A stretch of 64,000 nucleotides of DNA from an uncultured delta proteobacterium (lineage in GTDB: Bacteria > Myxococcota > Myxococcia > Myxococcales > Myxococcaceae), in the NCBI GenBank assembly GCA_963796055.1, contig CAWCKH010000004.1:2400001-2464000 (forward strand), given 5' to 3'. The notes beneath the pieces are model-generated. The model did not search any database and had not been told where the DNA came from. It saw only the letters and a program-made list of their open reading frames with translations. The position numbers and the translations under genes are program-made. Positions within the stretch are counted from its first letter, which is position 1. Each line of letters opens with the position of its first letter. Of this stretch, positions 5,532 to 54,095 are shown piece after piece.

Positions 5532-5553
5532 GGGCCGACTCTAACCGGTCGAC

Positions 5554-24827: not shown

Positions 24828-24838
24828 GCCGTCGGGGG

Positions 24839-25357: not shown

Positions 25358-25580
25358 CCCAACGATGCGCGCACGGGGGTGACCCCCGAGCGCGGGCTGC
25401 ATGTACGCCGACGCCCGATGCAGGACGCGAGCGGCGACGCGTTCCGGCGACGCGAGAGCACGGTCCGGAGCCACCGGTGGATGCGCACCTCGACCGTCCC
25501 GGGGTATCGCCGGTCAGTCTCGCGGCCCGGACCCGAGCGCCGGAGCGCTCCCTCTCGCCGCGTCTGGCCCGTGACTCGCA

Positions 25581-26708
25581 ATGGCGGCGGGTTCGATGCG
25601 CGCGCTCTCCGCCCCGAGCACCCGCTGGCCGCTCGTCCGGCTCACCACCCGGAAGCTGGGCCGCGCACGTCTGCTCGTCGACCGACGCCCCGCGCTGCTG
25701 GCCGAGCTCGAGGCGCTCCGGGCGGCGGCCGCCCACGCCGTGACCGACGCGCTGGGCACCGAGGTCCAGCTCACCGCGCGGATGGCGGACACGCCGGTGG
25801 TGCCCGCGCGTGCGCTCGGACACGCGGCGCTCTTCTGCGTGGTGGCGCTCGGGGGGCCCGGCGTCGAGGCGGTGCTGGAGCTGGACCCCAGGCTCGCCGC
25901 CGGGCTCGCGGCCCGGCGCACCGGGGCCCCGGCTCCCGAGGTCCCGGTGCTCGCGGCGACGCGCTTCGAGCGCGCGCTCCTGGCGGAGCTGCTGCTCCGG
26001 CTGCTCGCGGCGCTGCGGGAGGTCCGGGAGCCGGAGTCCCGGTGGCGCCCGCGTCTGGTCGAGGTCGGCGCGGCCCGCGCCGAGGCCGAGCGGCGCCTGG
26101 GCTCCGGTCCGTCGCTCGTCGTCGAGCTGGGAGTGGAGTGTGCCGCGCTTCGCGGGCGCGCCGTGCTCCTCCTCTCCGAGCTGGCCCTGCGTGCCGTGGC
26201 CCTGGCGGTCCCCGGGCCTGTCGCCCCGCCGGGTCCGGTCGCCTCGCGGGTGCGCATCCTGTTCTCGCCGCGCGCTCGCTGCGGGGTGGTCTGGGCGCAC
26301 CAGCTCGCTTCCCTCGCCGGCTCGGCGGTGGTGCTCCCCGGCGCGCGGCTGGTGGACGGAGCGTTGCACGGGCCGCTGGCGCTGGTGCGGCCCGGAGCCG
26401 TCCTCCGCGGCGCGCTCTCCGGCGAGGGCTTTCGCCACTCCGGCGCCGAGCTGCTCCCGCCTTCTCTGGAGGTCACCCACGTGGATCCCGCACTGTCCGA
26501 ACTGCCGGTCGAGCTCGAGGTGGAGCTCGCGCGCGTTGCGCTGTCCCTCGCCGAGGTCTCTGCCCTCCAGCCCGGTGCGGTGGTCCCGCTCCGGGTGAGC
26601 GCCGGCGATCCGGTGTTCCTCCGCGCCGGAGACCGCCGTATCGCCCGGGCCGAGCTGGTGGAGGTGGAGGGCGAGGTCGCCGCCCGCGTCCTGGAGCTCG
26701 TGCCTTGA
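25581..26708 (+). CDS. sctQ: C-ring protein with SPOA domain (SctQ/FliM-FliN)
   Basis: C-terminal ELPVELEVELARVALSLAEVSALQPGAVVPL...IARAELVEVEGEVAARV. Confidence 0.85.
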   Translation: MAAGSMRALSAPSTRWPLVRLTTRKLGRARLLVDRRPALLAELEALRAAAAHAVTDALGTEVQLTARMADTPVVPARALGHAALFCVVALGGPGVEAVLELDPRLAAGLAARRTGAPAPEVPVLAATRFERALLAELLLRLLAALREVREPESRWRPRLVEVGAARAEAERRLGSGPSLVVELGVECAALRGRAVLLLSELALRAVALAVPGPVAPPGPVASRVRILFSPRARCGVVWAHQLASLAGSAVVLPGARLVDGALHGPLALVRPGAVLRGALSGEGFRHSGAELLPPSLEVTHVDPALSELPVELEVELARVALSLAEVSALQPGAVVPLRVSAGDPVFLRAGDRRIARAELVEVEGEVAARVLELVP

Positions 26709-27016
26709 GTCTGGCCGTCCATGTCCGCCGCCCCATCGCGCTGCTCGCCCCCCTCGGTGGCGCGGCCCTCATGCTCCTGGTGCTGGGGCCGAACCTCCGC
26801 GGTGGCGCGGCCGCGCTGCTCGCTGCTTCGGCGACCCTGGCGATGCGGCTTCGGCCCGGCGTGTCCTCCCCCGCGGAGCCCCGACCGTTGCGCGTCCTCG
26901 AGCGGCTGCAGCTCGGACCACGCCTCACGGTGGTGCTGGTCGAGACCGCAGGGCGCCGTTACCTCGTCACCACCGGAGCCACGGTGACCCCGCTGCCGCT
27001 GGAGGGGCCGCCGTGA
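26705..27016 (+). CDS. FliO-like small membrane protein
   Basis: N-terminal hydrophobic segments then LRVLERLQLGPRLTVVLVETAGRRYLV (FliO-type beta domain). Overlaps both neighbours. Confidence 0.7.
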   Translation: MSLAVHVRRPIALLAPLGGAALMLLVLGPNLRGGAAALLAASATLAMRLRPGVSSPAEPRPLRVLERLQLGPRLTVVLVETAGRRYLVTTGATVTPLPLEGPP

Positions 27017-27690
27017 GCCCGCTCCTCGCCGCGCCCATCCCGCTTCCCGAGCCGGGGGCGAACCCGGTGTCGCTGCTGCTGCTGCTCGCGGGGATGAGCC
27101 TCCTCCCCTTCCTGATGGTGATGGCCACCAGCTTCACCAAGATCAGCGTCGTTCTCTCGCTCACCCGCTCGGCGCTGGGGACGCAGCAGGCCCCGCCCAC
27201 GGTGGTGCTGACCGGGCTCGCCGCGGTGCTCTCGCTGGTGGTGATGAGCCCCGTCGCCGAGGCGATGCTCGCCCGCATTCACGGCGAGCGGCTGCCCTCG
27301 GTCCCGGGCCCGGAGCTGCTCCGGGTCGTCCAGAGCGCCGCCGAGCCGCTGCGTGCCTTCCTCGTCGAGCAGGGCAGCCCCGAGCTCCGGGCCGAGTTCG
27401 CCGCGCTCTCCCGTGAGCTCCACGGCGGCGCGGAGGTGTCGGAGAGCGACCTGGCGGTGGTGGCTCCGGCCTTCGTGCTCTCCGAGCTCAAGCAAGCCTT
27501 CCAGATCGGCTTCCTGGTCTTCCTTCCGTTCCTGGTGGTGGACATGGTGGTGGCCAACGTCCTGCTCGCGCTGGGGATGCAGTCGCTGTCGCCGTCGCAG
27601 GTGAGCCTCCCGTTCAAGGTCCTCCTCTTCGTTGCCGTGGACGGCTGGGCGCTGCTGGCCCGGAGCCTCGTCCAGGGGTACCGGGGATGA
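27013..27690 (+). CDS. sctR: Export gate SctR/FliP
   Basis: TSFTKISVVLSLTRSALGTQQAPP, PAFVLSELKQAFQIGFLVFLPFLVVDMVVANVLLALGM, LPFKVLLFVAVDGW. Confidence 0.95.
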   Translation: MSPLLAAPIPLPEPGANPVSLLLLLAGMSLLPFLMVMATSFTKISVVLSLTRSALGTQQAPPTVVLTGLAAVLSLVVMSPVAEAMLARIHGERLPSVPGPELLRVVQSAAEPLRAFLVEQGSPELRAEFAALSRELHGGAEVSESDLAVVAPAFVLSELKQAFQIGFLVFLPFLVVDMVVANVLLALGMQSLSPSQVSLPFKVLLFVAVDGWALLARSLVQGYRG

Positions 27691-27953
27691 GCATCGAGGC
27701 GCTCCTGGCCGTCGGGCGCGAGGCGCTGGTCCTGATGGTCCTCGCCTCCCTGCCGCCGGTGCTCGCGGGGCTGGTGGTGGGTGTTGGCATGGGGCTGCTC
27801 CAGGCGGTCACCCAGGTGCAGGAGGCGACGCTCTCGGTCGTTCCGCGCCTCTGCGCGGCGCTGCTCGCGCTGGCCGTCGCCTTCCCCTGGATCGGCGGAC
27901 AGCTGCTCCGCTTCACCGCCGCTCTCCTCCAGGCGGCGGGGTCCGTCCGGTGA
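27687..27953 (+). CDS. sctS: Export gate SctS/FliQ
   Basis: GLLQAVTQVQEATLSVVPRL. Confidence 0.93.
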   Translation: MSIEALLAVGREALVLMVLASLPPVLAGLVVGVGMGLLQAVTQVQEATLSVVPRLCAALLALAVAFPWIGGQLLRFTAALLQAAGSVR

Positions 27954-28717
27954 TCCGCGCCCTCGCCGCGCTGGCGGAGGCAGCCAGGCCCGAGCTGCTG
28001 GGCTGGGCGCTGGCGTCGATGCGGGTGCTGCCGGTGACACTGTTCTGCCCGGTGCTCGGCGGACAGCTGGTCTCCGCCCCGGTGCGGCTTGCCGTGGCGG
28101 GCTCCCTCGCGCTCACGCTCCGCCCGCTCGCCGGCCCGGTCACGGAGGCCTCGCTCGACTTCTTCGCCCGCTGTGGTCGGGAGGCCGCAGTGGGTCTCCT
28201 CGTCGGCCTGGGGGCCGCGCTCCCCTTCGACGCTGCGCGCATCGGGGGCCGACTGGTCGACCTGGTGCGTGGCACCTCGGCGGAGGCGGCTCTGCCCGTG
28301 GCTGGCCACCGCGAGTCGGCGACGGGCGACGTGCTGCACCAGCTGCTGGTGTCGCTCGCGCTGGCTGCGGGGGTGCTTCCGGTCATGGTCCGGGCGCTCG
28401 CCAGGAGCTACGTCCTCGTCCCGCTCGGCAGCGGCGGCGGGAGAACCGACGGCGCCCTCGCGCTGGCCGGGCTGGTGGGCGCGGCGCTCGCCACCGGGCT
28501 CTCGGTGGCGGCGCCCGTCGTCGCGCTGAGCTGGGCAACGGACGCCGCGGTCGGCCTCGTGCTGCGCGCCGCGCCGGGCCTGCCTGCGACCGAGCTGGCC
28601 ACCCCGGTGCGCATCCTCGGCGGGGCGACGGTGCTCTGGCTCTCGCTCGGGCTGGTGGCGGACCGGCTGCTCGCGCTCGCATCGGACGGCTGGCTCCCGG
28701 GAGTGCTGGGGCGATGA
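27950..28717 (+). CDS. sctT: Export gate SctT/FliR
   Basis: Hydrophobic, with REAAVGLLVG...GGRLVDLVRG and GLVLRAAP. Position between sctS and sctU. Confidence 0.88.
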   Translation: MIRALAALAEAARPELLGWALASMRVLPVTLFCPVLGGQLVSAPVRLAVAGSLALTLRPLAGPVTEASLDFFARCGREAAVGLLVGLGAALPFDAARIGGRLVDLVRGTSAEAALPVAGHRESATGDVLHQLLVSLALAAGVLPVMVRALARSYVLVPLGSGGGRTDGALALAGLVGAALATGLSVAAPVVALSWATDAAVGLVLRAAPGLPATELATPVRILGGATVLWLSLGLVADRLLALASDGWLPGVLGR

Positions 28718-29748
28718 GCGGCGACCGCAGCGAGGAGCCCACCCCGCGCCGGCTCCGCCAGGCCCGGGAGCGGGGCCAGGTGCCACGGAGCCGGCTCTTC
28801 TCGGGGAGCCTGGTGCTCGCCGGGGGAAGCACTGGCGCGGCGATGGGACTGGCCGGCGCCACCGACGCGCTCCGCACCTGGACGGTGCTGCTGCTGGTCC
28901 AGGGCACGGCGGTCCCCGCGGCCCTGCACCAGTCCCTCTGGCTGCTCGTCCGCGCCTGTGCCCCGGCGCTCGCCGGCGCGATGCTCGCCGCGGGCCTGGC
29001 CGGTCTCCTCGTTTCCGGCTGGGCTCCCTCCAGCGCGGTGCTCGTGCCGCGGCTGGAACGGCTCGACCCGCTGGCCGGACTGAAGCGCCTCTTCAGCTGG
29101 CGGACATTCTCCGAGCTCAGCCGGAGCCTGCTGTTCGCTGCGCTGCTCCTCGCCGTGCTCGCCGCCGGGGCCTGGACCCTCCTTCCGTCGGCGTTGCGGC
29201 TGCCGGGCGTCGCGAGACCGGCGGCGGGCCTGGTCCTGCTCCGCCCCGGGGCGCTGCGCGTCTGGACCGAGGCGCTGCTGCTCGCCCTGGCGGTGGGCGT
29301 GCTCGACCTCCTCCTCGCCCGGAGGAGGCATCGCCGTGCGCTGCGGATGAGCCGGGACGAGGTGCGGCGCGAGCACCGCGAGCAGGAGGGAGACCCACGC
29401 CATCGGGCCCACCGGCGGGCCGCGCACCGGCAGCTGCTGCTCGCCGGGCGGGTGCGCGGGGTGAAGGCCGCGTCGGTGGTGGTGGTGAACCCGATCCACG
29501 TCGCCGTCGCTCTGCGCTGGGCCCCGGAGGAGTGCGACGCGCCCTACCTGGTCGCCCGGGGGCGGGCGGACGAGGCGCGCGCCATCCGCGCCGAGGCACT
29601 CGCCCTGGGCATTCCCATCGTCCGTGACCTCGCGCTCGCCCGGGGGCTGGTCCACTACGACGTGGGCGAGGAGGTGCCGGAGGAGCTCTACCGCGCGGCG
29701 GCGGTGGTTCTGCAGCACGCGCTCGATCGCACCGAGGGCACACCATGA
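28714..29748 (+). CDS. sctU: Export switch SctU/FlhB
   Basis: SEEPTPRRLRQARERGQVPRS, MSRDEVRREHREQEGDP, autocleavage loop NPIH. Confidence 0.93.
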   Translation: MSGDRSEEPTPRRLRQARERGQVPRSRLFSGSLVLAGGSTGAAMGLAGATDALRTWTVLLLVQGTAVPAALHQSLWLLVRACAPALAGAMLAAGLAGLLVSGWAPSSAVLVPRLERLDPLAGLKRLFSWRTFSELSRSLLFAALLLAVLAAGAWTLLPSALRLPGVARPAAGLVLLRPGALRVWTEALLLALAVGVLDLLLARRRHRRALRMSRDEVRREHREQEGDPRHRAHRRAAHRQLLLAGRVRGVKAASVVVVNPIHVAVALRWAPEECDAPYLVARGRADEARAIRAEALALGIPIVRDLALARGLVHYDVGEEVPEELYRAAAVVLQHALDRTEGTP

Positions 29749-31784
29749 AGGCGCGCCTCCGGAATGTGCTCGCCGCGGCGCTCCGCCACCGGGCGCTGCT
29801 GCTGCCCTGCCTGGTGGCCGCCATCCTCGGCGCGCTGGTGGTGCCGCTGCCGAGCTGGCTGCTGGACCTGGGCCTGGCGCTGAATCTGGTTGCCGCCGCG
29901 GCGCTGCTGGTGGCGGCGCTGCGCGCCGGGGGGCCGCTGGAGCTGAGCGCCTTTCCCACCCTGCTCCTGGTGACCACGCTCTTCCGGCTGGCGCTGAACG
30001 TCTCCTCCACCCGGCTCGCCCTGGCCGACGGACACGCCGGGGCGGTCATCCAGGCGTTCGGCGAGTTCGTGGTGCAGGGCGACTACGTGGTGGGTGGCGT
30101 GGTGTTCGCCGTGGTGACCCTGGTGCAGTTCCTGGTGGTGGCCAAGGGCGCCGAGCGGGTGAGCGAGGTCGCGGCGCGCTTCACCCTCGATGCCATGCCG
30201 GGCAAGCAGATGGCCATCGACGCCGACCTCCGGGCTGGCCTCATCGACCAGACCGCCGCGCGCGAGCGCCGGCGGAGCCTGGAGCGCGAGTCGCAGATGT
30301 TCGGGGCGATGGACGGGGCGATGAAGTTCGTGAAGGGCGACGTGCTCGCCGGTCTGGTCATCGTGCTGGTGAACCTCGTCGGCGGGGTGCTGGTGGGCGT
30401 GCTCCAGCGCGGGCTCGACGCCCAGGGGGCCCTGGCCCGCTACGCGCTCATCGCCATCGGCGACGGGCTGGCGAGCCAGGTGCCCTCGCTCTGCATCGCG
30501 GTGGCCGCAGGGCTGGTGGTGACCCGCGTCGCGCCGGGCGAGGAGGGGCAGGGGCTCGGCGAGGACATCGGGCTGCAGCTCCTCGGTAGCCCGGGCGCGC
30601 CCTGGCTCCTGGCCGGGGTCGCCGGTGCGCTCTCGCTGGTGCCAGGGATGCCGCATCTCACATTCCTCGGCCTCGCCGGCGCGCTGCTCGTGCTCGGGCG
30701 CTGGTGGCGGCCCGGCGAGGCGTCTTCTCCCGAGGCTCCCGGGGAGCCGGTGGGCCCGCCCGCGACTCCGGGGAGCCCGGCCGAACAGGCCGAGCCCGCA
30801 ATGGGCGTGTCGCCGCTCGCGCTCGAGCTCGCGCCGGGATGGACCGAGGGGTCGTCGGGCGCGCGCCCGTTCCAGGACGCGCTCCGGCGGATGCGCGCGG
30901 CGCTCGAGGCCGAGCTCGGATTCCGGATGCCCGGGGTCCACGTCCGCGCCGGCGCCGCACTCCCCGAGGGGGCCTACCGCATCCTGGTGGACGAGGTTCC
31001 TGCCGCCGCCGGCCGTCTCCCCACCTCGGGGGTGCTGGTCCGGAGCGCCGCGGCAGAGCTGGGCTTCCTCTCGGTCGAGGCGGAGCCGCTGGAGGACCCG
31101 CTCACCGGCCGGCCGCTGGCGCGGGTGCCTGAGCCGGCGCGGGAGCGGCTGGAGCTCGCCGGGCTCGCGCCGCGCGCTCCGGCCGAGGTGGTGGTCGAAC
31201 ACCTGGCGAGCGTGGCCCGTCGCCACGCACCGGCGCTGCTGGGGCTCCAGGACGTGCAGCTGCTGCTCGACGGGCTCGAGGCTCGGTGCCCGGCGCTGGT
31301 CCACCCGGTGCTGGAGAAGGTGACCTTGCCCGTGCTGACGGACGTGCTCCGCCGCCTCCTGCACGAGGGGGTCAGCGTCCGGAACCTCCGGGGGGTGCTG
31401 GAGACGCTCGCCTCGCCGGGCATCGACGGCGACGCCGCGACCCTGGCCGAGCGGTGCCGCCAGGCGCTGGCGCGGTGGATCAGCCACCGGCACGCTCCCT
31501 CGGGAGCGCTCTTCGCCTGGCTGGTGGACCCGGCGCTCGAGGAAACCCTCCGCACCCGCACCGTGGACGGCGCGCCGGCGCTCGAGCCCGAACGGGTCCA
31601 GGCGCTGCTCGAGGCGGTGGCGGGGCTGGTCGAGGACGGCCGAGCGGTGCTCCTCGCCTCGGGCGACGTCCGCCGCCCGCTCCGGGCGCTGTGCGAGGGC
31701 GCGTTTCCGGAGGTCGCGGTGCTGGCCTATGCCGAGCTCGACCCGGCGCTCCGGGTCAAGCCGCTGGGAAGGCTCTCTGCCTAG
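29745..31784 (+). CDS. sctV: Export apparatus SctV/FlhA
   Basis: AKGAERVSEVAARFTLDAMPGKQMAIDADL, FGAMDGAMKFVKGD, IGDGLASQVP. Confidence 0.96.
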   Translation: MKARLRNVLAAALRHRALLLPCLVAAILGALVVPLPSWLLDLGLALNLVAAAALLVAALRAGGPLELSAFPTLLLVTTLFRLALNVSSTRLALADGHAGAVIQAFGEFVVQGDYVVGGVVFAVVTLVQFLVVAKGAERVSEVAARFTLDAMPGKQMAIDADLRAGLIDQTAARERRRSLERESQMFGAMDGAMKFVKGDVLAGLVIVLVNLVGGVLVGVLQRGLDAQGALARYALIAIGDGLASQVPSLCIAVAAGLVVTRVAPGEEGQGLGEDIGLQLLGSPGAPWLLAGVAGALSLVPGMPHLTFLGLAGALLVLGRWWRPGEASSPEAPGEPVGPPATPGSPAEQAEPAMGVSPLALELAPGWTEGSSGARPFQDALRRMRAALEAELGFRMPGVHVRAGAALPEGAYRILVDEVPAAAGRLPTSGVLVRSAAAELGFLSVEAEPLEDPLTGRPLARVPEPARERLELAGLAPRAPAEVVVEHLASVARRHAPALLGLQDVQLLLDGLEARCPALVHPVLEKVTLPVLTDVLRRLLHEGVSVRNLRGVLETLASPGIDGDAATLAERCRQALARWISHRHAPSGALFAWLVDPALEETLRTRTVDGAPALEPERVQALLEAVAGLVEDGRAVLLASGDVRRPLRALCEGAFPEVAVLAYAELDPALRVKPLGRLSA

Positions 31785-44638: not shown

Positions 44639-44866
44639 TCAGCTCCTGGGAAGCGTCCTCGTCCCGCCCTTCAGCGGCGCGCCGATCAGAGGGCCGATCA
44701 GGCAGACGTTCACGAGGCCGGTGGCGATGGGAACCACACCCACCGCGGCGAGGATCGTCCCGGCAAGCCCCTGCACCACAGAGAGTCCCAGGTAGATCAG
44801 CGCTCCCCCTGCCACCACGCGCAGCACGCGTCCGAGCGGCGTGGCCATCCATTCGGCGAAGCACAT
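44639..44866 (-). CDS. DUF2892 / YgaP-like small membrane protein
   Basis: GRVLRVVAG...two TMs...GLVNVCLIGPLIG. GGAGGA RBS. Confidence 0.8.
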   Translation of the reverse strand: MCFAEWMATPLGRVLRVVAGGALIYLGLSVVQGLAGTILAAVGVVPIATGLVNVCLIGPLIGAPLKGGTRTLPRS

Positions 44867-44894
44867 GGAATCCTCCGCGAACACCCTTTCGGGC

Positions 44895-44923
44895 TGAGAG
44901 CCAGGGTGTCACGTCCAGGGTTC
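44895..44923 (-). promoter_or_regulatory. ECF-type promoter motif copy 1 (GAAC-N17-GGCTCTCA)
   Basis: Minus strand GAAC-cctggacgtgacaccct-GGCTCTCA upstream of the DUF2892 gene. Confidence 0.7.
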
Positions 44924-44940
44924 GGTTACATTGCTCATGC

Positions 44941-45744
44941 ATGGCGCGCACCGACGAGGAGCTGCTGCAGGCGGCGCGGGCGGGCGACGACGAGGCGCTG
45001 GAGGCGCTGCTTGCCCGGCACGAACGTCAGATCTTCCGCTTCGGGCTACGGATGTGCGGCAACGAGGAGGACGCCCGCGACGTCCTTCAAGAAACGTTGC
45101 TCGCCGCGTTCAAGGGCGTCCGGCAGTTCCGGGGTGACGCCCAGCTCTCGACCTGGCTCTACCAGGTGGCGCGGAGCTTCTGCACCAAGGCGCGCCGGCG
45201 AGGGGCTGGTGAGCCCGCACGACACGAGCCGATCGAGGGCGCAGCGGCGCGCGCGGTGAGTGTCCCGGCCTCGGGGCCCGACGATCGCGCGCACGCCCGT
45301 GAGATGGCCCGGGTGCTCCAGGAGGCGCTGCTGGCGCTCCCCGATTCGCAACGGGAGGTGGTGCTCCTCCGGGACGTGGAGGGGCTCACCGCCGAGGAGG
45401 CCGCCCGGGTGGTGGGCATCGACGTCCCGGCGCTCAAGAGCCGGCTCCACCGGGCGCGCCTGGGACTTCAAGATCGGATCGCCGGGCTGCTCGGTGCCGA
45501 CTCCGGACACCCGGCGGCGTGCCCCGACCTGGCCCGCGAGCTGCTCGCCCACGACGAGGAGGAGCTTGACCAGGCAGCCTGTGCGCGGCTGCAGCAGCAC
45601 CTCGAGCGGTGTCCGCGCTGCGGCCCGGCCTGCGAGGAGCTGAAGCGGTCGGTGTCACTCTGCCGGGCGATCCCCGGGGGCGGCGTCCCCCCCGAGGTCC
45701 GGGCCCGGGTGCGACACGCGCTCCGGGTGGCGGTGCACGGCTGA
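44941..45744 (+). CDS. ECF sigma factor fused to a C-terminal zinc-binding anti-sigma (zf-HC2/ZAS-like) domain
   Basis: Region 2 (DARDVLQETLL...STWLYQVA), region 4 (LPDSQREVVLLRDVEGL...KSRLHRAR), then C...HLERCPRC (Hx3Cx2C) with extra Cys. Confidence 0.9.
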   Translation: MARTDEELLQAARAGDDEALEALLARHERQIFRFGLRMCGNEEDARDVLQETLLAAFKGVRQFRGDAQLSTWLYQVARSFCTKARRRGAGEPARHEPIEGAAARAVSVPASGPDDRAHAREMARVLQEALLALPDSQREVVLLRDVEGLTAEEAARVVGIDVPALKSRLHRARLGLQDRIAGLLGADSGHPAACPDLARELLAHDEEELDQAACARLQQHLERCPRCGPACEELKRSVSLCRAIPGGGVPPEVRARVRHALRVAVHG

Positions 45745-45819
45745 GCGGGGCTGGAAGCCTTTCCCGGACCGGCGTAAGCCACACCTCGGGCAGACCGGTC
45801 GGGGGGAAGGAGGAGAGGG

Positions 45820-47676
45820 GTGACCGCGGAAACGATGGAGCCGAGGACCTCGGTCCGGGGAGTCGGGACCCGTGCGGCCCATACGATTCCCGAGCTGCTT
45901 CTGGAGCGGGTGGCCGCAACGCCCACGGCGAGGGCGTTTCTCTACCCCCAGGGGGATTCCTGGAGCACCCTCTCCTGGGCCGAGCTCGGGGAACGGGTAC
46001 GGGCCGTGGCATGCGGGCTCCGGGCGCTGGGGCTCCGGATGGAGGAGCGCTGCGCCCTGCTCTCCGGAACCCGGCTGGACTGGATCGTGGCGGACCTGGC
46101 GACCCTCTGCGCCGGTGGGGCGACCACCACCATCTATCCGTCCAACACCGCAGACGACTGCGTCTACATCATCAACAACTCGGAGGCGGTCTTCCTGTTC
46201 GCCGAGAACGAGGAACAGGTGCAGAAGCTGTCCCCTCGCAGGAGCGAGCTCAAGACGGTGAAGAAGGTCATCGTCTTCGACGGAGCATCCTCGGCCGATG
46301 GTTGGGTGATGAGCCTTCAGCAATTGATCGACCTCGGACGGGCGAGCGATGCCCGCGAGCCGGCCTCGTTCGAGGCCATCGCCCGGGCGGTGCGGCCGGG
46401 GGACCTGGCGACGCTGATCTACACCTCCGGCACAACTGGTAGACCCAAGGGAGTGGAGCTGACCCACGACGCGTGGATCTCCCAGGCGGAGGCGATCGAC
46501 GCCCTGGAGATTCTGAGCGTCGACGACCTCCAGTACCTCTGGCTGCCCCTGGCGCACATCTTCGGCAAGGTGCTCGAGGTGGCGCAGCTCCGGATCGGCT
46601 TCCCCACGGCGATCGAAGGGAGGGTGGACCGGCTGGTGGACAACCTCCCGAAGATCCGCCCAACCTTCATCGCCGCCGTCCCTCGCATCTTCGAGAAGAT
46701 CTACAACCGGGTGATCGGCACCGGCCGGGACGCGGGCGGGGTGACCTACGCCATCTTCAAGTGGGCGTTCGGAGTCGGGGCCGAGGTCTCCCGGCTGCGC
46801 CAGGCGGGCCAGGCCCCAAGGGGACTGCTGGCGGCGAAGCACGCCGTCGCCAGCCGGCTGGTCTTCTCCAAGCTCCAGGCGCGCTTCGGCGGGCGGCTGC
46901 GGTTCTTCGTTTCCGGCAGCGCCCCCCTCTCCCGGACGGTTGCCGAGTTCTTCCACGCGGCCGACATCCTGATCCTCGAGGGCTACGGGTTGACCGAGAG
47001 CAGCGCCGCCAACTGCGTGAACCTCCCCACGCGGTACCGGTTCGGAACGGTGGGCCCCCCCTTGCCGGGAACCGAGCTGAAGATCGGCGAGGACGGGGAG
47101 ATCCTCATCCGGGGACGAGGGGTGATGCGGGGATACCACCGACTCCCCGAGGCGACGGCGGAGGCCCTGGATCCGGACGGATGGCTCCACAGCGGAGACC
47201 TCGGGCAGATCGACGATGGCTTCCTGGTGGTGACCGGGCGCAAGAAAGACCTCCTCAAGACTTCCAACGGCAAGTACATCGCACCGGCGGAGCTGGAGCT
47301 GAAGCTGAGGATCGCCTGCCCGCATGCGAGCCAGGTCCTGGTGCACGGGAACAACCGTCACTTCGTCTCCGCGCTCATCTCCCTCGACCCCGAGGCGCTT
47401 CGCGCCTGGGCCGGCGCGCACGGACACGAGCAGAAGAGTTACGAGGAGCTGGTGCGCTTGCCGGAGGTCTTCTCGCTGGTCGAGCAGTGCGTGACCGCGC
47501 TCAACGGCCAGCTGGCGAGCTTCGAGACCATCAAGAAGTTCATCATCCTTCCCCAGGACCTGACGGTAGAGACAGGGGAGCTGACCCCGAGCCTGAAGCT
47601 CAAGCGCCAGATGGTGGAGCGCAAGTATCAGGCCCTCCTCGACGAGCTCTACAAGGACGCGGTGGCCCAGCTGTAG
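45820..47676 (+). CDS. Long-chain fatty acid-CoA ligase (AMP-dependent synthetase)
   Basis: YTSGTTGRPKG, EGYGLTE, GWLHSGDLG, GRKKDL, ELTPSLKLKR. Confidence 0.93.
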   Translation: MTAETMEPRTSVRGVGTRAAHTIPELLLERVAATPTARAFLYPQGDSWSTLSWAELGERVRAVACGLRALGLRMEERCALLSGTRLDWIVADLATLCAGGATTTIYPSNTADDCVYIINNSEAVFLFAENEEQVQKLSPRRSELKTVKKVIVFDGASSADGWVMSLQQLIDLGRASDAREPASFEAIARAVRPGDLATLIYTSGTTGRPKGVELTHDAWISQAEAIDALEILSVDDLQYLWLPLAHIFGKVLEVAQLRIGFPTAIEGRVDRLVDNLPKIRPTFIAAVPRIFEKIYNRVIGTGRDAGGVTYAIFKWAFGVGAEVSRLRQAGQAPRGLLAAKHAVASRLVFSKLQARFGGRLRFFVSGSAPLSRTVAEFFHAADILILEGYGLTESSAANCVNLPTRYRFGTVGPPLPGTELKIGEDGEILIRGRGVMRGYHRLPEATAEALDPDGWLHSGDLGQIDDGFLVVTGRKKDLLKTSNGKYIAPAELELKLRIACPHASQVLVHGNNRHFVSALISLDPEALRAWAGAHGHEQKSYEELVRLPEVFSLVEQCVTALNGQLASFETIKKFIILPQDLTVETGELTPSLKLKRQMVERKYQALLDELYKDAVAQL

Positions 47677-47679
47677 CCC

Positions 47680-47708
47680 GAACCTCTGGCGCCGCCGCGA
47701 GGCTCTCA
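47680..47708 (+). promoter_or_regulatory. ECF-type promoter motif copy 2 (GAAC-N17-GGCTCTCA)
   Basis: GAAC-ctctggcgccgccgcga-GGCTCTCA upstream of the second thioredoxin. Confidence 0.7.
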
Positions 47709-47728
47709 TCGGCCGGAGGTGATGGCCC

Positions 47729-48202
47729 CTGGACGTCTTCCGCTGCTCGGGCTGCGGCCTGTTCCTCAGGCTGGAGGTCGAAGCCCCCAATGTTCACGGC
47801 TGCGCCCGATGCGGGGGAGCGGTGTCCGAGCAGGGAGCACCCCAGCCGGTCGCGCTGTCCTCCCTCCGTGAGGCGGTCCGCTCGGCTCCGGTCCCGCTGC
47901 TGGTCGAGTTCTGGGCGCCGGAGTGCGAGCCGTGCCTCACCTCGGCAGTGGTGGTGGACGCGGTGAGCCACCGGCTCGCGGGCGAGGCCGTGGTTCTGCG
48001 GCTCGACGTCGAGGAGAACCCCGAGGCCTGCGAGGCCTACGGGGTCCTCGCGGTCCCCACCCTCGTGCTCTTCGCCGCGGGCCAGGAGCGGGGACGGCGG
48101 GTCGGGCGGGTGCAGGCCCGCCAGATCGAGGCGTGGGTTCGTGGCCGCGACGGCATGGACCTGGCTCCGCTCCCTCGTGCGGCGATCGGCCGCCAGGGCT
48201 AG
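47729..48202 (+). CDS. Second Zn-finger thioredoxin (TrxC paralogue, CEPC active site); start anomalous
   Basis: The frame of ORF 47822 extends upstream as LDVFRCSGCGLFLRL...GCARCGG before WAPECEPC. Start is either CTG 47729 or ATG 47722 with a 1-nt frameshift. Confidence 0.8.
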   Translation: MDVFRCSGCGLFLRLEVEAPNVHGCARCGGAVSEQGAPQPVALSSLREAVRSAPVPLLVEFWAPECEPCLTSAVVVDAVSHRLAGEAVVLRLDVEENPEACEAYGVLAVPTLVLFAAGQERGRRVGRVQARQIEAWVRGRDGMDLAPLPRAAIGRQG

Positions 48203-48235
48203 CGAGGACCGTTCACCCCGGGGTGGTTTCGGCCA

Positions 48236-51200
48236 TCAGGTCGGCTTCGCGGTCAGCGCTCCGTGCCCGGGGGGAGCGGGCGGGGATTCCATCACCGCCA
48301 CCGGTGCGCCCGGTCCCACGGCGAACCTGCGCGCCAGCACGGTGTACAGGACCGGAACCGCGATGCGTGAGAGCAACGTCGCGGCGACCTCGCCGGCCAT
48401 CATGCTGATCGCCAGGCCCTGGAAGATGGGGTCGGCCAGCATCACCGCGCTCCCCACCACCACCGCCGCGGCAGTGAGCAGCATCGGGCGGAAGCGCACC
48501 ACCCCGGCTTCCTCCACCGCGACCTCCAGCGGCATTCCCTCCGCGACTTTGAGCTGGATGAAGTCCACCAGGATGATGCTGTTGCGCACGATGATGCCCG
48601 CGCCGGCGATGAAGCCGATCATGCTGGTGGCGGTGAAGAAGGCCCCCAGCAGCCCGTGCGCCGGAAGGATGCCGATCAGGCTCAGGGGAATCGGCAGCAG
48701 CACCACCAGGGGGATGATGAAGCTGTCGAACCAGCCCACGACCAGCACGTAGATCAGCACCAGCACCGCGGCGAAGGCGAGCCCCAGGTCCCGGAACACC
48801 TCGAGCGTGATGTGCCACTCGCCGTCCCACTTCATCGCCAGCCGCTCGGTGTCGGCGGGCATGGACAGGCCGAACCGCGGCACCCCCTCGCCGTGCGGCC
48901 GGAGCGCGTCCAGCTTCCGGTTCAGCGCCATCAGCGCGTAGACCGGGCTCTCCTCGCTGCCGGACAGCTCGCCGAAGACGTAGCTCACCGGCTCGAGGTT
49001 CTTGTGGAAGATGGGGGGGCCTCCCACCTCCGCCGGACGGACCAGCGTCTCCAGCGGCACGGCTCCCCGCTCGCCCTGGACCGGGATCTGGAGGAGGTCG
49101 GTGAGCCGGTCGCGCTGCGCCGGCGCGAGCCCGAGCACGATGGGCACCCGGGTCGTCCCCCGATCGAGGCGCAGCGTGCCCAGCTCGGTCGCGGGCTGGG
49201 TGAGCGCCAGCGCCTGCACGACGCTGGCCGGGCTCACCCCCTGCAGCGCCGCCCGCTCCCGGTCGACCTGGAGCACCGTCCTCGGGGTCACCGGCTCGAG
49301 CGAGGAGTCGATGTCCACCACCCCCGGGGTGGTGCGGAAGGCCTGGCGCACCTGGCCGGCGTAGCCGTCGCGCTCGGCAGCGGTCGGCCCGTAGATCTCC
49401 GCCACCAGTGTGGCGAGCACCGGCGGACCGGGCGGGATCTCCACCAGCCGCAGCCGCGCCCCGAGCGGCGCGGTGATCTTCGTGAGCTTCGGCCGGAGCG
49501 TGGTGGCGATCTGATGGCTCGATCGCTTTCGCGCGTGCTTGCTCACCAGCTGGACCGCGAGGTCCACCTGCTCGGGCGCACCGCGGAGGAAGGTGTGCCG
49601 CACCATGCCGACGAAGGTCATCGGGACCGGGGCGAGCGAGTGCACCTGGACGGCTTGCACGTCCGGATCCTCGAGCAACGCGTGCCCCAGCTGCTGACCC
49701 ACCGCCAGCGACTGCTCCCGGGTGGCCCCGGCAGGGAGATCCACGAACACCTGGAACTCCGACTTGTTGTCGAAGGGAAGCATCTTCACCCGCACGAACC
49801 CGGTTCCGACCAGCGCCACCGCTCCGGCGAAGAGCGCCACGATCAGCGCCAGGAATCGGAGCCGAGCCCGACCGGAGTGCAGGAGGGTACGGATGATCCG
49901 CCGGTACGTCCGCGTGGACCAGGTCTCCCGGCTCTCGTCCGCGGCGACCTTGTGGTCGTGGCCGAGCAGCCGCATCGCCGCCCAGGGCGCGACCACGAAG
50001 GCCACCGCCAGCGAGAACAGCATCGCCAGGCTCCCGCCGACGGGGATGGGCCGCATGTACGGCCCCATCAGCCCGCGGACGAAGGCCATGGGGAGGATGG
50101 CGGCGATGACCGCGAAGGTGGCGAGGATGGTGGGGTTTCCCACCTCGTCCACCGCATCGAGCACCGTCCGCGCCAGACCCGTCTTCCGCCCGGGGGCGTG
50201 CAGGTGGCGGTGGACGTTCTCCATCACCACGATCGCGTCGTCCACCAGGATGCCGATGGAGAAGATGAGCGCGAAGAGGGTGATGCGGTTCAGGGTGTTG
50301 CCCAGCAGCTGGTTGATGAGCAGGGTCAGCGACAGGGTCACCGGGACGGCGATCCCCACCACCAGCGCCGAGCGCCAGCCCATCGCCAGACCCACCAGCG
50401 CCACCACCGAGAGCGTGGCGATGAGGAGGTGGCGGATGAGCTCGTCCGACCGCTCGCGCGCGGTCTCGCCCGAGTTCCGGGTCAGCTCGACCTGGACCGT
50501 GGAAGGGGTGAGCCCCCCGCGGAGCGTGGCCAGCTTGGCCTTCACCCGATCGGCCAGCACGGTGGCATTGGCGCCCCGCCGCTTGGCCACGTCCACCGAG
50601 ACCGCCTGCTCGAACTCCGGGTGCTCCTTGCTCGCGGTGAGGACGACTGCCGGGTCCCGCTCGGGCCCGTCGGCGACCTGCGCCACGTCCCCGAGCAGGA
50701 TGGGCCTTCCCCCGCGCCGGGCGACCACCAGGCGCCGGAGGGCATCGGGGCCAGTGACCGCGCTGCTCGCCGAGAGCTCCACCCGCCGGTTCTGGTCCAC
50801 CAGGTCCCCGGCGGGTGCCTCGGCGTCGGCGGACAGGAGCGCCTGGCGGATCTCCCCCAGCGAGAGGTCCAGCTCGCGGAGCCGGCGGGGATCCGGCTCG
50901 ACGCGGACCACCCGTCGCGCGCCACCGAGGACCTGCACCTGCGCGGCCTCGGGGATGCTCGACAGCTCCCGCGCCACCTCCTGGCCGAGCTGCCGTAGCA
51001 CCCCCGGCGCCAGCCCGCCGCCGTGGAGCGTGACCGTCACCACCGGCACGTCGTCGATGGCGACCAGCGACACCGTCGGGCGCCCGGCGCGGCGAGACAA
51101 GAGCTCCGGATGGGCCTCGATCTCCTGGCGCACCTTCACCAGGCTGGGCTCGAGCGGCTCGTTCACCCGGAAACGGGCGGTGAGCAACGCCCCGTCGCGG

Positions 51201-51478
51201 GCGCTGCTCGAGTAGACGTACTCCACCCCGGGGATGCCCCAGAGCCGGTGCTCGAGCCCGGTGGTGACCTCGGCCTCCACCTCCTGCGGCGAGGCGCCGG
51301 GCAGGGGAACGAAGACGTCGACCATCGGGACGATGATCTGCGGCTCCTCCTCGCGCGGGGTGGTGAGCACCGACACCACGCCCACGACCAGCGCGGCGGC
51401 GATGCCGAGGACCGTCAATCTCGAGTGGATGGTCCTCGCGGCCAGCCGGCCGGCCAGACCCGCCCGAGGCTCACTCAC
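48236..51478 (-). CDS. RND efflux transporter permease
   Basis: 1080 aa. TPREEEPQI, GILVDDAIVVMEN, GIIVRNSIILVDF, RFRPMLLT. Confidence 0.95.
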   Translation of the reverse strand: MSEPRAGLAGRLAARTIHSRLTVLGIAAALVVGVVSVLTTPREEEPQIIVPMVDVFVPLPGASPQEVEAEVTTGLEHRLWGIPGVEYVYSSSARDGALLTARFRVNEPLEPSLVKVRQEIEAHPELLSRRAGRPTVSLVAIDDVPVVTVTLHGGGLAPGVLRQLGQEVARELSSIPEAAQVQVLGGARRVVRVEPDPRRLRELDLSLGEIRQALLSADAEAPAGDLVDQNRRVELSASSAVTGPDALRRLVVARRGGRPILLGDVAQVADGPERDPAVVLTASKEHPEFEQAVSVDVAKRRGANATVLADRVKAKLATLRGGLTPSTVQVELTRNSGETARERSDELIRHLLIATLSVVALVGLAMGWRSALVVGIAVPVTLSLTLLINQLLGNTLNRITLFALIFSIGILVDDAIVVMENVHRHLHAPGRKTGLARTVLDAVDEVGNPTILATFAVIAAILPMAFVRGLMGPYMRPIPVGGSLAMLFSLAVAFVVAPWAAMRLLGHDHKVAADESRETWSTRTYRRIIRTLLHSGRARLRFLALIVALFAGAVALVGTGFVRVKMLPFDNKSEFQVFVDLPAGATREQSLAVGQQLGHALLEDPDVQAVQVHSLAPVPMTFVGMVRHTFLRGAPEQVDLAVQLVSKHARKRSSHQIATTLRPKLTKITAPLGARLRLVEIPPGPPVLATLVAEIYGPTAAERDGYAGQVRQAFRTTPGVVDIDSSLEPVTPRTVLQVDRERAALQGVSPASVVQALALTQPATELGTLRLDRGTTRVPIVLGLAPAQRDRLTDLLQIPVQGERGAVPLETLVRPAEVGGPPIFHKNLEPVSYVFGELSGSEESPVYALMALNRKLDALRPHGEGVPRFGLSMPADTERLAMKWDGEWHITLEVFRDLGLAFAAVLVLIYVLVVGWFDSFIIPLVVLLPIPLSLIGILPAHGLLGAFFTATSMIGFIAGAGIIVRNSIILVDFIQLKVAEGMPLEVAVEEAGVVRFRPMLLTAAAVVVGSAVMLADPIFQGLAISMMAGEVAATLLSRIAVPVLYTVLARRFAVGPGAPVAVMESPPAPPGHGALTAKPT

Positions 51479-52460
51479 CGGCCACCTCCACCCGCTCTCC
51501 GTCCCGGAGGCTCGCTGGAGCGTCGATGACCCGCTCCCCTGGTCCGAGCCCGGCGAGTACGGGAATCCGGTCCCCCTCCTGCTCTCCGAACCGGAGCCAG
51601 CGGAGCGTCGCTCGCCCGTCGGCGAGGACGAAGACGCCGCTCAGGTCTCCCCGCTGCACCACCGCGGTGCGCGGTACCGCCTGCCGCGGACCGCCCGCCC
51701 CCTTCACCCCGATGCGCGCGAAGTCCCCGCTCCGCAGCGCGGGCGCGTCCTTGGTCGGACGGGCCCGGAAGGCGCTCCGGTGGGAGAGGGGGTCCCCGCC
51801 GGACGAGAGCGCCACCAGCGTCGCCGAGCCCTGAACGGCGCCGACCCGGAATGGGACCTCGGCCCCGACCGCCAGCCCGGCTGCCTCGCCCTCGGAGAAG
51901 GTCCCGGTGAGCTCGAGCGCGGTGCCGTCCAGCTCGAGCAGCGGGGCGCCCGGGCCGACCAGCTGCCCCCGGCTCACCCACTTGCGTTGCACCGCCGCGT
52001 CGAACGGTGCGCGGATGACCGTGTCCGCCAGCGTGGCCCGCGCGGCCTCCACCCGGGCCATCGCCTCCGCACGGGCGGTCATCGCCGCGTCGAGCTCGGT
52101 GGCGGTCGCGGCGTTCGCCGCCCGGAGCGCCTGGATGCGCCGCACCTGGGACTCGGCCACCTCCCGCTGGCTCTCGGCGGCCCGGAGCGTGGCCTGGACG
52201 TCGTCGCCCGACAGGCGGACCAGCACCTCGCCGCGCTTCACCCGGGCACCCTCGGCCACCGACAGCTCGGTCACCCGGGCCGACACGCGGGTGGCGAGCA
52301 CCGCGTGGTCCACCGCGCTCACCGTGGCCGGCACCCAGGCCCGCTCGCCGACCTCCTCGGCCGGAACCAGTCGCACCCTGGCGGGCGGAGCCTCGGGTGC
52401 AGCGGGCGAATGGCTCGCGCTGCAGCCGGCGACGAGGAGAAGGACGACGCTGCGCTTCAC
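51471..52460 (-). CDS. RND periplasmic adaptor (membrane fusion protein), lipoprotein
   Basis: VAGC lipobox, VAEGARVKRGEVLV, IRAPFDA, GLGPGERV. Confidence 0.92.
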   Translation of the reverse strand: MKRSVVLLLVAGCSASHSPAAPEAPPARVRLVPAEEVGERAWVPATVSAVDHAVLATRVSARVTELSVAEGARVKRGEVLVRLSGDDVQATLRAAESQREVAESQVRRIQALRAANAATATELDAAMTARAEAMARVEAARATLADTVIRAPFDAAVQRKWVSRGQLVGPGAPLLELDGTALELTGTFSEGEAAGLAVGAEVPFRVGAVQGSATLVALSSGGDPLSHRSAFRARPTKDAPALRSGDFARIGVKGAGGPRQAVPRTAVVQRGDLSGVFVLADGRATLRWLRFGEQEGDRIPVLAGLGPGERVIDAPASLRDGERVEVAGE

Positions 52461-53770
52461 GGATGGACTCCTTCCACGGGTTGTCCCGAGGCATGCTCCA
52501 GCTCGGCGCGGGCGAAGCGGGCCTGGAGCGCGCTCCGGAGCAGCAGGGCTCGTGCCGAGGTCAGGCCGGTCTCGGCGTCGAGCAGCTCGGTGAGGGGGAT
52601 GAGGCCCTGGCGGTGGCGGGCCTGACGAAGGGTGCGGGTCTGCTCGGAGGCGGAGACCGCGGTGCGCGCCGCCTCCAGCGCAGCGGCCGACGCGGTCAGC
52701 GAGGCCCGGGCCTGCTGCAGCTCGGCGGCGAGGATCCGGTCCTGCTCGAGGCGGCGGGCCTCGGCGGCCACCCGGGTGGACTCGGCGGCGTCGGCGGCCT
52801 TGAATCCGGCGACCGAGCCGCGCCACCGGAAGATCAGGAAACCCATTCCCCAGGTGGTCCCCTCCGAGAGACTGGCGCGCTCGGTCGCCACGCCGCCCTG
52901 CAACAGCAGGGTTGGCCAGAGCCGCCCGTGCGCCTCGTCCGCCGCGGCGACCTGAGCGTCCACCGCGGCCCGCGCGGCCCGGGCCTCGGGGCGCTCCTGG
53001 ACCTCCGTGCTCACCTCGCCCTCGGGCTGCAGGAGCGGGGTGACGAGCATCCCGGGCGCCGGCTCCTGACCGACGAGGAGCGCGAAGCCGGTCCTGGCCA
53101 GGGCGAGCTGCCGCACCGCCGCCGCCCGCTCGGCCTCGGCCTGGGCGCGGTAGGCCGTGCTCCGGGAGCCCTCGGAGGCGAGGAGCAACTGTTGCGCCAC
53201 CCGGGCGTGGACGAAGACCTCGGTGTCGCGGGCCACCCGGAGCGCATCCTCGGCGTAGACCAGCGCCTCCTCGGCGGCGCGGACCGAGAAGTAGGCGCGC
53301 ACCGTTTCCAGCGCCACCTGCGTCTGCATCACCGCCCGGCCGGCGTCCTCAGCCTCGGCGCCGGCGTGGGCCCTCCGCCGCGCAGCCCAGAGCGCCGGGT
53401 CGATGAGCGGCTGCTCCAGCACCGCGGAGAGGCCGAGGCTGCCGCGGGCCGAGGGCGTGTTCAGCCGCGCCGGGTCGAAGTCGGCCGTGGTCAGCTGGCC
53501 CTGGTCGAGCAGCAACGCGAAGTGGTGCGAGGGCTGCGAGGTGACGGTGCCCTGGGCGCCGAGGACGACGGTGGGGCCGAGGGCCCAGTCTGCGGCCTCG
53601 GCGCTGCGAGAGGCGGAGTTGGCCTGGGCCGAGGATGCCTGCAGACGGGCATCGTGGGTCCAGGCGGTACGGATGGCCTCGGTGATGGTCATCTCGGGCG
53701 CCGCGAGGACGACCGGCGAGCAGAGCAGCCCTGCGAGGAGGAGCCCGGACGCGGGTGTGCGAGGAGTCAT
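52457..53770 (-). CDS. TolC family outer-membrane efflux protein
   Basis: Signal peptide, helical OEP repeats (TVRAYF, ELLDAE). First gene of the tripartite pump. Confidence 0.88.
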   Translation of the reverse strand: MTPRTPASGLLLAGLLCSPVVLAAPEMTITEAIRTAWTHDARLQASSAQANSASRSAEAADWALGPTVVLGAQGTVTSQPSHHFALLLDQGQLTTADFDPARLNTPSARGSLGLSAVLEQPLIDPALWAARRRAHAGAEAEDAGRAVMQTQVALETVRAYFSVRAAEEALVYAEDALRVARDTEVFVHARVAQQLLLASEGSRSTAYRAQAEAERAAAVRQLALARTGFALLVGQEPAPGMLVTPLLQPEGEVSTEVQERPEARAARAAVDAQVAAADEAHGRLWPTLLLQGGVATERASLSEGTTWGMGFLIFRWRGSVAGFKAADAAESTRVAAEARRLEQDRILAAELQQARASLTASAAALEAARTAVSASEQTRTLRQARHRQGLIPLTELLDAETGLTSARALLLRSALQARFARAELEHASGQPVEGVHP

Positions 53771-53780
53771 GGACGTGGCC

Positions 53781-53809
53781 TGAGAGCCTCGCCCTCCGCC
53801 GAGCGATTC
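53781..53809 (-). promoter_or_regulatory. ECF-type promoter motif copy 3 (GAAT-N17-GGCTCTCA)
   Basis: Minus strand GAAT-cgctcggcggagggcga-GGCTCTCA, ending 10 nt before the TolC ATG. Confidence 0.68.
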
Positions 53810-53899
53810 ACCAGCCTGGCGTGAACCCTCGCTCGCCCCTCCTGGCTCGAAGGACACGGGATGCCCCGGCGTGCCGGACTGTCCGCGAAACGCTCCCCC

Positions 53900-54095
53900 A
53901 GCTTCGCGAGTCCCCGCGCCGGGCGCGGATGCCACCAGGCGTACAGCCACGCGGGGAGGAAGAGCACGGCCTCGGTCAGCAGCACCGAGAGGCCGACAGT
54001 CCGAGCGCCGTCTCCGCGAACGGGCCCGCCCCCGGCCGCGACTCACGCCAGCGCGCCACGACGACGCCCACCGCCACGTGGCCCAGTGTCGCCAT
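53900..54095 (-). pseudogene. Remnant of a YdjM/DUF457-like membrane metal-dependent hydrolase (internal deletion)
   Basis: N-terminus MATLGHVAVG is joined out of frame near 53990 to a C-terminus GLSVLLTEAVLFLPAWLYAWWHPR. The catalytic middle is absent. The 3' limit is approximate. Confidence 0.55.

Follow-up and report, generated by a model that had tools for sequence, protein, structure and literature searches.

The sigma factors closest in design to the one described here belong to ECF270, a group of extracytoplasmic function (ECF) sigma factors regulated by zinc anti-sigma (ZAS) domains. According to Supplementary Text S2 of PMC7826278, the ZAS is soluble and is fused to the sigma factor in 60% of subgroup ECF270s2, and that account gives the group no conserved promoter or genetic context and no studied member; PMC8999054 includes ECF270 and gives a member from Anaeromyxobacter dehalogenans as its example (listed member WP_011419852.1). 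Here we examine a locus of this type in a 64,000-nucleotide stretch of DNA from an uncultured soil myxobacterium (the window; assembly GCA_963796055.1, contig CAWCKH010000004.1, positions 2,400,001 to 2,464,000). Among named records the nearest come from Myxococcaceae and from assemblies of unclassified deltaproteobacteria. The locus consists of an ECF sigma factor with a fused C-terminal ZAS domain and three copies of a promoter-like motif that precede genes for a YgaP-like membrane protein, a thioredoxin and a tripartite exporter. We propose that this single protein probably acts as a switch that responds to reactive-sulfur stress.

The window sigma factor likely belongs to ECF270, putatively to subgroup s2. 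Both have an ECF core with a soluble ZAS directly behind it, fused in part of the members and separate in one genome compared here (G109; L-numbers denote loci and G-numbers genomes compared, with G000 the window's own genome of 5.53 Mb, 98.5% complete), and both occur in Deltaproteobacteria/Myxococcota. The Anaeromyxobacteraceae protein P0136, 46% identical over its full length, belongs to the clade studied here, and no A. dehalogenans name occurs among the 120 matches listed for the sigma factor. Unlike in the ECF270 account, a conserved promoter precedes the targets here, which form a sulfur/thiol regulon, and ZAS-less orthologues exist. The preliminary description of the window did not recognise the system as a described one; the fusion architecture had in fact been published as ECF270s2 (PMC7826278), in an account that names no promoter, regulon or signal. 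What is newly defined is the conserved promoter with its probable reactive-sulfur regulon; the brake-less orthologues that retain the promoters and a family-specific cysteine pair in sigma2 are also new. A literature search, with most subscription journals outside it, found no promoter, regulon or signal for the fused ECF-ZAS type. ECF216 and ECF284, with membrane anti-sigmas, were considered as the group and dropped.

A second point of reference is ECF12, with SigR-RsrA of Streptomyces, whose ZAS motif has the spacing C-x23..26-H-x3-C-x2-C, and SigH-RshA of mycobacteria. The window protein resembles these in its soluble ZAS (C-x25-H-x3-C-x2-C), in the GAAY-type -35 element and in having thioredoxin and thioredoxin reductase among the targets. 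It differs from both in that the anti-sigma is fused, the ZAS and sigma2 each have additional conserved cysteines, the -10 element is GGCTCTCA and the regulon is rich in persulfide-handling genes, and it stays below the RsrA and SigH cut-offs; TIGR02947 (SigH/SigR) lies outside the best 25 models for the window sigma. In ECF48, ECF52 and ECF53 (e.g., SCO4117), too, the sigma core is followed by a fused zinc finger that resembles a ZAS. Those proteins have long extensions with transmembrane helices, and proteolysis is thought to release them, whereas the sigma factor here is soluble and ends after the ZAS.

With respect to target genes, the closest systems are the persulfide sensors CstR, SqrR/BigR/YgaV and FisR. 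Three primary sensor classes are given in reviews, and the classification in PMC13467558 names CsoR, ArsR and Fis and no ECF sigma factor. Known persulfide sensors control the same gene set as that described below, including resistance-nodulation-division (RND) pumps and YgaP (PMC13467558, PMC9774590, PMC12423496, PMC9774250, PMC7315123). The shared targets are persulfide dioxygenase, rhodaneses, TauE, YeeE/YedE, YgaP-like proteins and RND pumps, all seen in relatives of the window, the dioxygenase and YeeE not in G000 itself. In contrast to CstR, SqrR/BigR and FisR, the regulator here is a sigma factor and not a protein of the CsoR, ArsR or sigma-54 activator fold.

The promoter motif and its tie to the sigma clade

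In the window there are three matches to GAAY-N17-GGCTCTCA, against none in any of 100 dinucleotide shuffles, and they lie at the very positions and strands given in the preliminary description, whose account of the genes behind the sites also holds once the thioredoxin start is corrected to the CTG at 47729 (Table 1). Every one of the three window copies of the octamer GGCTCTCA has GAAY exactly 17 bases 5' of it. Spacer identity is 6, 4 and 8 out of 17 bases, so low that the sites are not duplications, as had been argued. The genome as a whole contains 58 copies of the octamer, of which 4 have GAAY at N17 and 1, 0, 0 and 0 have it at N15, N16, N18 and N19. The fourth strict match (C4:1343023) scores below 16 bits, may itself be chance, and speaks for a chance or codon-driven pattern in GC-rich DNA. 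We give that explanation practically no credence, since it is refuted by the shuffles, the conservation and the start-codon peak, and the fixed spacing and the co-occurrence reported below also speak against it.

Table 1. Features of the sigma/ZAS locus in window coordinates
Feature	Position	Strand	Remarks
Promoter site 1	44895-44923	-	strict motif and matrix; predicted start site near 44888
Promoter site 2	47680-47708	+	strict motif and matrix; predicted start site near 47715
Promoter site 3	53781-53809	-	strict motif and matrix; predicted start near 53774, four bases before ATG
Fourth, weaker motif copy	53823-53851	+	19.8 bits; not followed by an intact gene; back to back with site 3
ECF sigma factor, 267 aa	44941..45744	+	sigma2 (23-87), sigma4 (125-176), fused ZAS; Pfam r2/r4 and TIGR02937 above cut-off
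Fused soluble ZAS domain	45520..45741	+	C194-x25-H220-x3-C224-x2-C227, plus C214, C231, C241
Candidate housekeeping -10 TACATT	44927..44932	+	putative; 8 bases 5' of sigma ATG
YgaP-like (DUF2892) membrane protein, 75 aa	44639..44866	-	PF11127 above cut-off; ATG 28 bases behind site 1
Divergent thioredoxin, CTG start	47729..48202	+	PF00085; N-terminal CxxC..CxxC finger, active site CEPC
Outer-membrane efflux protein (TolC-like, OEP), 437 aa	52457..53770	-	PF02321
RND periplasmic adaptor (membrane fusion protein, MFP), 329 aa	51471..52460	-	TIGR01730 above cut-off
RND permease, 1080 aa, cysteine-free	48236..51478	-	PF00873

A scoring matrix built from 47 sites of other genera, which had been picked by the window-derived pattern so that the matrix is partly circular, finds 8 sites of at least 16 bits in G000 and 1 in the reversed genome. 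These are the three window sites, the orphan copy at 53823, C4:228977, C5:99137 and two weak ones. With spacers of N15, N16, N18 and N19 the matrix matches number 5, 1, 5 and 1 (reversed control 1, 0, 2 and 0), and none of them stands before any known target in G000; N16 variants are present in relatives (L194, L199). The window sites recur in related loci, site 2 before the same thioredoxin gene in L021 and L026, and site 3, as a counterpart, before the OEP gene in L023, L128 and L132. In L021 a divergent site occupies the place that corresponds to the orphan copy, which is probably the relic of a lost divergent target. An identical 35-base stretch at C4:29196, C4:3641227 and C3:342634 of G000 is probably the end of a mobile element.

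In the relatives the motif has the properties of a promoter. A strict match lies no more than 10 kb from the sigma gene at 22 of the 42 orthologue loci (L021-L062) against 0 of 9 loci L063-L071, and across 41 genomes, partly the same as the nearest named records, the strict pattern has 58 matches against 4 for its reversed form. Among the 152 distinct sites of at least 18 bits over all loci gathered, in which kin share sites, an ATG stands exactly 6 bases behind the motif's final A in 23 and 5 bases behind it in 8, with 1.5 expected per position. An ATG at offsets 0-3 occurs once, offset 6 is a purine in 106, and the distance of 5-6 bases recurs before at least 8 different gene families. The ATG peak at offset 6 suggests leaderless messages, which places the predicted start site at the seventh base behind the motif. 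The sequence comparison supports a promoter-like element with -35 GAAYC, an extended -10 GGCTCTCA and a start about 7 bases on, whose -35 and -10 elements we take to resemble those of RpoE-type promoters. The Cappable-seq supplements of PMC8844925, which report published start sites, contain none of the five locus tags searched.

The distribution of the motif follows that of the sigma clade. We compared the 69 family f1 genomes that are at least 95% complete, with G000 and G151 left out. The fusion is present in 42, a close tail-less orthologue in 8 and a split form in 1 (G109, where separate sigma and ZAS genes lie inside a ygaP operon), and 18 are without the clade. A refined pattern, which was picked after the sites were seen and is counted here in related, non-independent genomes, is matched in 36/42 fusion genomes (73 sites, control 16), in 7/8 genomes with the ZAS-less orthologue (12 sites, control 0) and in the split genome (1/1); in genomes without the clade it is matched in 3/18 (3 sites, control 3), i.e., at background. 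The scan of this and related genomes that the preliminary description suggested, made here with matrix and pattern, found the motif co-occurring with orthologues of the sigma and conserved before targets, which supports its being tied to this clade. In the acidobacterial relative (the L061 genome) there are 5 pattern matches, none of them before a known target. We infer that the sigma factor binds the motif, controls the targets directly and is inhibited in cis.

It is very unlikely that the motif is read by another regulator, be it the split sigma/ZAS paralogue, a second ECF sigma of some Myxococcus clusters or a transcription factor. The paralogue (G000, C4:1577006-1577893) is closely similar in the sigma4 helix and the sigma2 loop, and the second ECF sits within the yeeE operon in L033, L035 and L039. 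However, the paralogue has no upstream site, the second ECF is not found in the site-bearing G000 and G007 (30/161 genomes match), genomes without the clade stay at background counts, and the bipartite shape together with the start-codon peak fits a sigma promoter rather than an operator. The paralogue itself is a conserved split ECF with a 78-residue ZAS, the closest paralogue of the window sigma, and is without C39 and C81.

The fused anti-sigma domain and orthologues without it

The window sigma factor and its ZAS form one single reading frame; family models find sigma2 and sigma4 and no sigma3. The preliminary description called it the only sigma factor there, and of the 27 ECF-like sigma factors that a six-frame profile search finds in the genome it is indeed the only one in the window. 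The Cys/His domain fused to it is, judged from its sequence, an RsrA-type zinc anti-sigma domain. The tail, about 80 residues long, matches TIGR03988 (antisig_RsrA) with an E-value of 1.4e-7 and 31.5 bits, below the cut-off of 62.5, and its profile matches RsiW (5wuq_C) with an E-value of 2.4e-6. Across 46 aligned orthologues C194, C214, H220, C224, C227 and C241 are invariant, C231 is present in 41, the C194-H220 spacing is x25 in 43, and the linker from sigma4 to the ZAS measures 17-27 residues. No transmembrane segment was found in the fusion in this alignment (maximum 19-residue hydropathy 0.77). The cysteines of the window protein lie only at 39, 81, 194, 214, 224, 227, 231 and 241. An atlas search with the protein returned ECF clusters alone.

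A single-chain model (pLDDT 77.8; pTM 0.53, too low for placing the ZAS) has its best structural matches among anti-sigma-bound sigma factors (5wuq, TM-score 0.81 of target). A predicted complex of the sigma core with the ZAS scored 0.59 against 0.00 for the best control, with at least 64% of contacts common to runs and a partner pLDDT of at least 59; in the calibration a pass at 0.60 or less was also obtained by 18/157 solved complexes and by both passing mismatches, and similar complexes already have solved structures. This prediction lends weak support to the binding of the ZAS by the sigma core. By analogy with RsrA and RsiW, the tail would bind both zinc and the sigma core, and modification of its cysteines would end this.

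A sense-strand motif, which would indicate autoregulation, is absent before the sigma gene in the window and across the genus loci. This absence agrees with the ECF270 account, but motif sites head operons that end in the sigma gene in L030, L042, L047 and L052 and stand before targets throughout. The candidate housekeeping -10 element of Table 1 has counterparts (TACACT or TACATT, 9-10 bases 5' of the sigma start) in L021-L024 and L026, and none in L025, L027 and L028. A scan for sigma-70 promoters and terminators returned 0 and 0 and did not pick up the TACATT hexamer. The stretch between site 1 and the sigma gene (44924-44940) is about 27 bases shorter from site 1 to TACATT than in L021-L023, so the two divergent promoters now stand back to back.

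The ZAS is missing from nine orthologues of 185-198 residues, which end behind sigma4 and keep motif sites, adjacent or elsewhere. A search of these nine genomes found no close stand-alone ZAS, the best matches having 29-34% identity, whereas the control G102 gave an E-value of 1.8e-36. On a tree of 26 rows that includes 5 of the nine, a single origin of the ZAS-less form is rejected (p-AU 0.00025), with at least 2 changes forced and 3 on the tree; by this reconstruction the brake is lost at least two times independently. C39 and C81 of sigma2 occur together in 46/46 aligned orthologues, 3/3 with a long linker, 9/9 ZAS-less and 1/1 split; among the 26 other ECF sigmas of G000, the first is found in 1, the second in 10 and both in 0. 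The ZAS-less sigma factors may be constitutive, controlled transcriptionally or switched by the C39/C81 pair. A bolder proposal, which we consider speculative and rather unlikely, is that the clade adds another class to the dedicated persulfide sensors, and the first based on a sigma factor, in which sensing lies partly in the sigma core at C39/C81; the fused ZAS would then be a second, expendable lock, and the ZAS-less forms would be switched by their own sigma2 dithiol.

In one ZAS-less lineage (L185-L187, L210-L213) most sites read GACTCTCA in place of GGCTCTCA. The sigma2 loop of that lineage is FREQ, not FRGD, and co-variation with GACTCTCA is possible, but GAC-type sites also occur with fused sigmas (L197).

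Target genes and the probable signal

Near the sigma gene in relatives, the motif precedes genes for persulfide dioxygenase-like hydrolases, YeeE/YedE, rhodaneses, TauE, OsmC, thioredoxin, DUF302, DUF6132, YgaP-like proteins and the RND pump. For distal targets, 60 of 107 relaxed matches were taken, chosen as remote from the sigma gene. A coding-like frame follows 44 of these 60 sites, with 25 frames in thiol, sulfur or efflux families, 7 in other families and 12 without a Pfam match. YeiH, DsrE and SoxB-/SoxC-like genes (best models, below cut-off) are also contained in motif-led operons, and thioredoxin reductase (TIGR01292 above cut-off), DsbD and OsmC recur as targets. In Myxococcus xanthus AM003 the motif-led hydrolase differs in 6/233 residues from 4YSB, which is MxPDO, a persulfide dioxygenase of type I (PMC6060420). 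The genes seen behind the motif include no SQR. A cysteine-rich protein of 60-68 residues with no Pfam match (MCxRxxCxxCGKPTWxGCGxH) recurs behind it in L049 (18015-18197), L081, L090 and L155.

We propose that the sigma factor is produced constitutively and would be restrained by its own C-terminal ZAS. Sulfane sulfur (persulfides or polysulfides) would modify the cysteines, zinc would be lost, and the ZAS would release the sigma core. The freed sigma would read the three adjacent promoters and transcribe a regulon for reactive sulfur and thiol repair, which in relatives would comprise persulfide dioxygenase, YeeE/YedE, rhodaneses, TauE, YeiH and thioredoxins. We consider such a self-inhibited ECF sigma, freed by reactive sulfur and reading adjacent promoters, fairly probable; the signal we infer because the targets match those of known persulfide sensors. 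The preliminary description had left the signal as thiol, reactive sulfur or metal, and of these the targets in the relatives favor reactive sulfur.

In a different explanation the sigma factor and promoters are the same but respond to thiol/disulfide or electrophile stress in general (diamide, HOCl), as in SigR-RsrA, the sulfur-detoxification genes being part of a broader thiol regulon. We regard this as a serious but distinctly less probable alternative. It agrees with the RsrA-type spacing of the ZAS, with thioredoxin, thioredoxin reductase, DsbD and OsmC as recurrent targets, and with targets in G000 that are not sulfur-specific. However, persulfide dioxygenases of two types, YeeE/YedE, TauE, YeiH, rhodaneses, DsrE and SoxB-/SoxC-like genes recur across families, and published expression data from M. 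xanthus DK1622 also speak against it.

In DK1622 the presumed orthologue is MXAN_4309 (810 bp), identified from gene order and lengths matching L035 rather than from sequence; by the L035 layout, the first genes behind the sites are MXAN_4319, MXAN_4318 and MXAN_4314. Wild-type normalised counts in Table S4 of PMC12754779 are 189-224 for MXAN_4309 and 4-13, 7-19 and 4-10 for the three targets in that order. A sigma gene that is expressed alongside almost silent targets is consistent with a lock acting after translation. The ahpC mutant has approximately 5-fold H2O2, and its log2 changes are +0.11 for MXAN_4309 and -1.15, -0.27 and -1.57 for MXAN_4319, MXAN_4318 and MXAN_4314, none significant (PMC12754779). 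The targets are thus not induced under raised H2O2, which speaks against peroxide as the signal, with the caveats that the stress in this mutant is chronic, catalase is induced, counts are low and H2O2 is not equal to diamide.

Several observations weigh against the reactive-sulfur reading, besides the partial circularity of the matrix, the after-the-fact choice of the refined pattern and the relatedness of the genomes mentioned above. Persulfide dioxygenase is absent from G000 (best match 31%), as is any YeeE family match, and the top matrix matches include no site for any of the 7 rhodanese matches in this genome; the sulfur reading therefore rests on the relatives. Genes of general thiol metabolism (thioredoxin, thioredoxin reductase, OsmC, DsbD) make up many of the targets. 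The refined pattern is unmatched in 6/42 fusion genomes, G017, G041 and G060 are without a clear regulon, and G019 and G001 (86-87% complete) have sites although the orthologue was not found in them. Nine brake-less orthologues in genomes where no close separate ZAS was found mean that the ZAS alone does not account for control. A further locus of DK1622, with sqr, Fis-type activator, pdo, rhodanese and tauE genes, may be its primary sulfide system. In the ahpC mutant this locus (MXAN_0177-0181) changes by log2 -1.8 to -4.0 with the activator unchanged (PMC12754779). Its occurrence in M. xanthus together with a second unit of yeeE-yedE and pdo resembles the FisR and BigR pair of Acinetobacter (PMC7315123). 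MXAN_0179, a second dioxygenase at this other locus that is strongly down in the ahpC mutant, was considered as a target and not counted.

A metal signal is improbable. On this view the sigma factor would, like CorE, need its cysteine-rich tail as a metal sensor in order to be active, and the metal would be exported by the RND pump. The tail has six cysteines and one histidine, an RND system is among the targets, an ArsP permease gene and a cupredoxin-like gene each have a single distal site before them, and CorE-type sigmas are myxobacterial (PMC6851896). The window sigma resembles CorE/CorE2 of M. xanthus (ECF238, formerly ECF44) in being a one-component myxobacterial ECF with a cysteine-rich C-terminus and weak or no autoregulation. 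CorE-like proteins have a CxC in the sigma2-sigma4 linker (PMC6851896) and a cysteine-rich tail of approximately 20 residues (PMC7826278). In contrast, the linker here is without CxC (no cysteine lies between 81 and 194), the tail is an 80-residue ZAS fold and not a short cysteine-rich domain, and it appears dispensable, as tail-less orthologues retain the promoters. The RND permease is nearer to multidrug/MdtBC than to CusA/CzcA models (NF033617 at 403 bits vs TIGR00914 at 222 bits, both below cut-off), and the 44 distal targets include no copper ATPase or multicopper oxidase.

If the reactive-sulfur reading is true, a sigma factor with a built-in zinc-thiol lock would be an added class of persulfide sensor, and an orphan ECF group would gain a promoter, a regulon and a signal. 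The proposal is testable in M. xanthus DK1622, where the presumed orthologue and targets are annotated and the targets include MxPDO, whose crystal structure is solved; orthologues that naturally lack the brake offer controls. Biosensors could also make use of such a thiol/sulfur switch, encoded by one gene and acting on a promoter that is short and rare.

In G000 the regulon looks reduced, to two YgaP-like genes, the thioredoxin, a small membrane protein with OsmC, and the RND pump. It is not self-contained as first described, since two further strong targets lie elsewhere in the genome, the small membrane protein with OsmC (C4:228977) and the second YgaP-like gene (C5:99137), and no motif precedes the sigma gene, the canonical thioredoxin (44170) or the acyl-CoA ligase (45820). 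The acyl-CoA ligase gene (45820-47676, plus strand) stands directly behind the sigma gene in 5/8 genus loci, and the thioredoxin gene takes its place in 2. The start of the window YgaP-like gene agrees with that in relatives. The motif-led thioredoxin has no in-frame ATG, and L021 and L026 have GTG at the place of its CTG, similarly spaced from GGAGG. Over 47570-48118 the sequence is identical in a contig of run X2, a run that may be the source or a sister sample. A frameshift in this second thioredoxin was considered and rejected, the frame being open from CTG 47729, with GTG in relatives and the run X2 contig identical.

Other features of the window include a 39-codon YdjM-family inner-membrane remnant (53976-54095, minus strand), which looks internally deleted and whose L024 homologue has 175 residues. 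The rtcB gene with archease lies at 1-1627 (minus strand), and type III secretion-like export genes (YscJ/FliF, FliN-like, FliP, FliQ-like, FHIPEP) lie at 23659-31781. At 3984-6305 a GAF/sigma-54 activator gene is divergent from an AhpC-family gene, the same layout as that of PexR-ahpC in PMC12754779.

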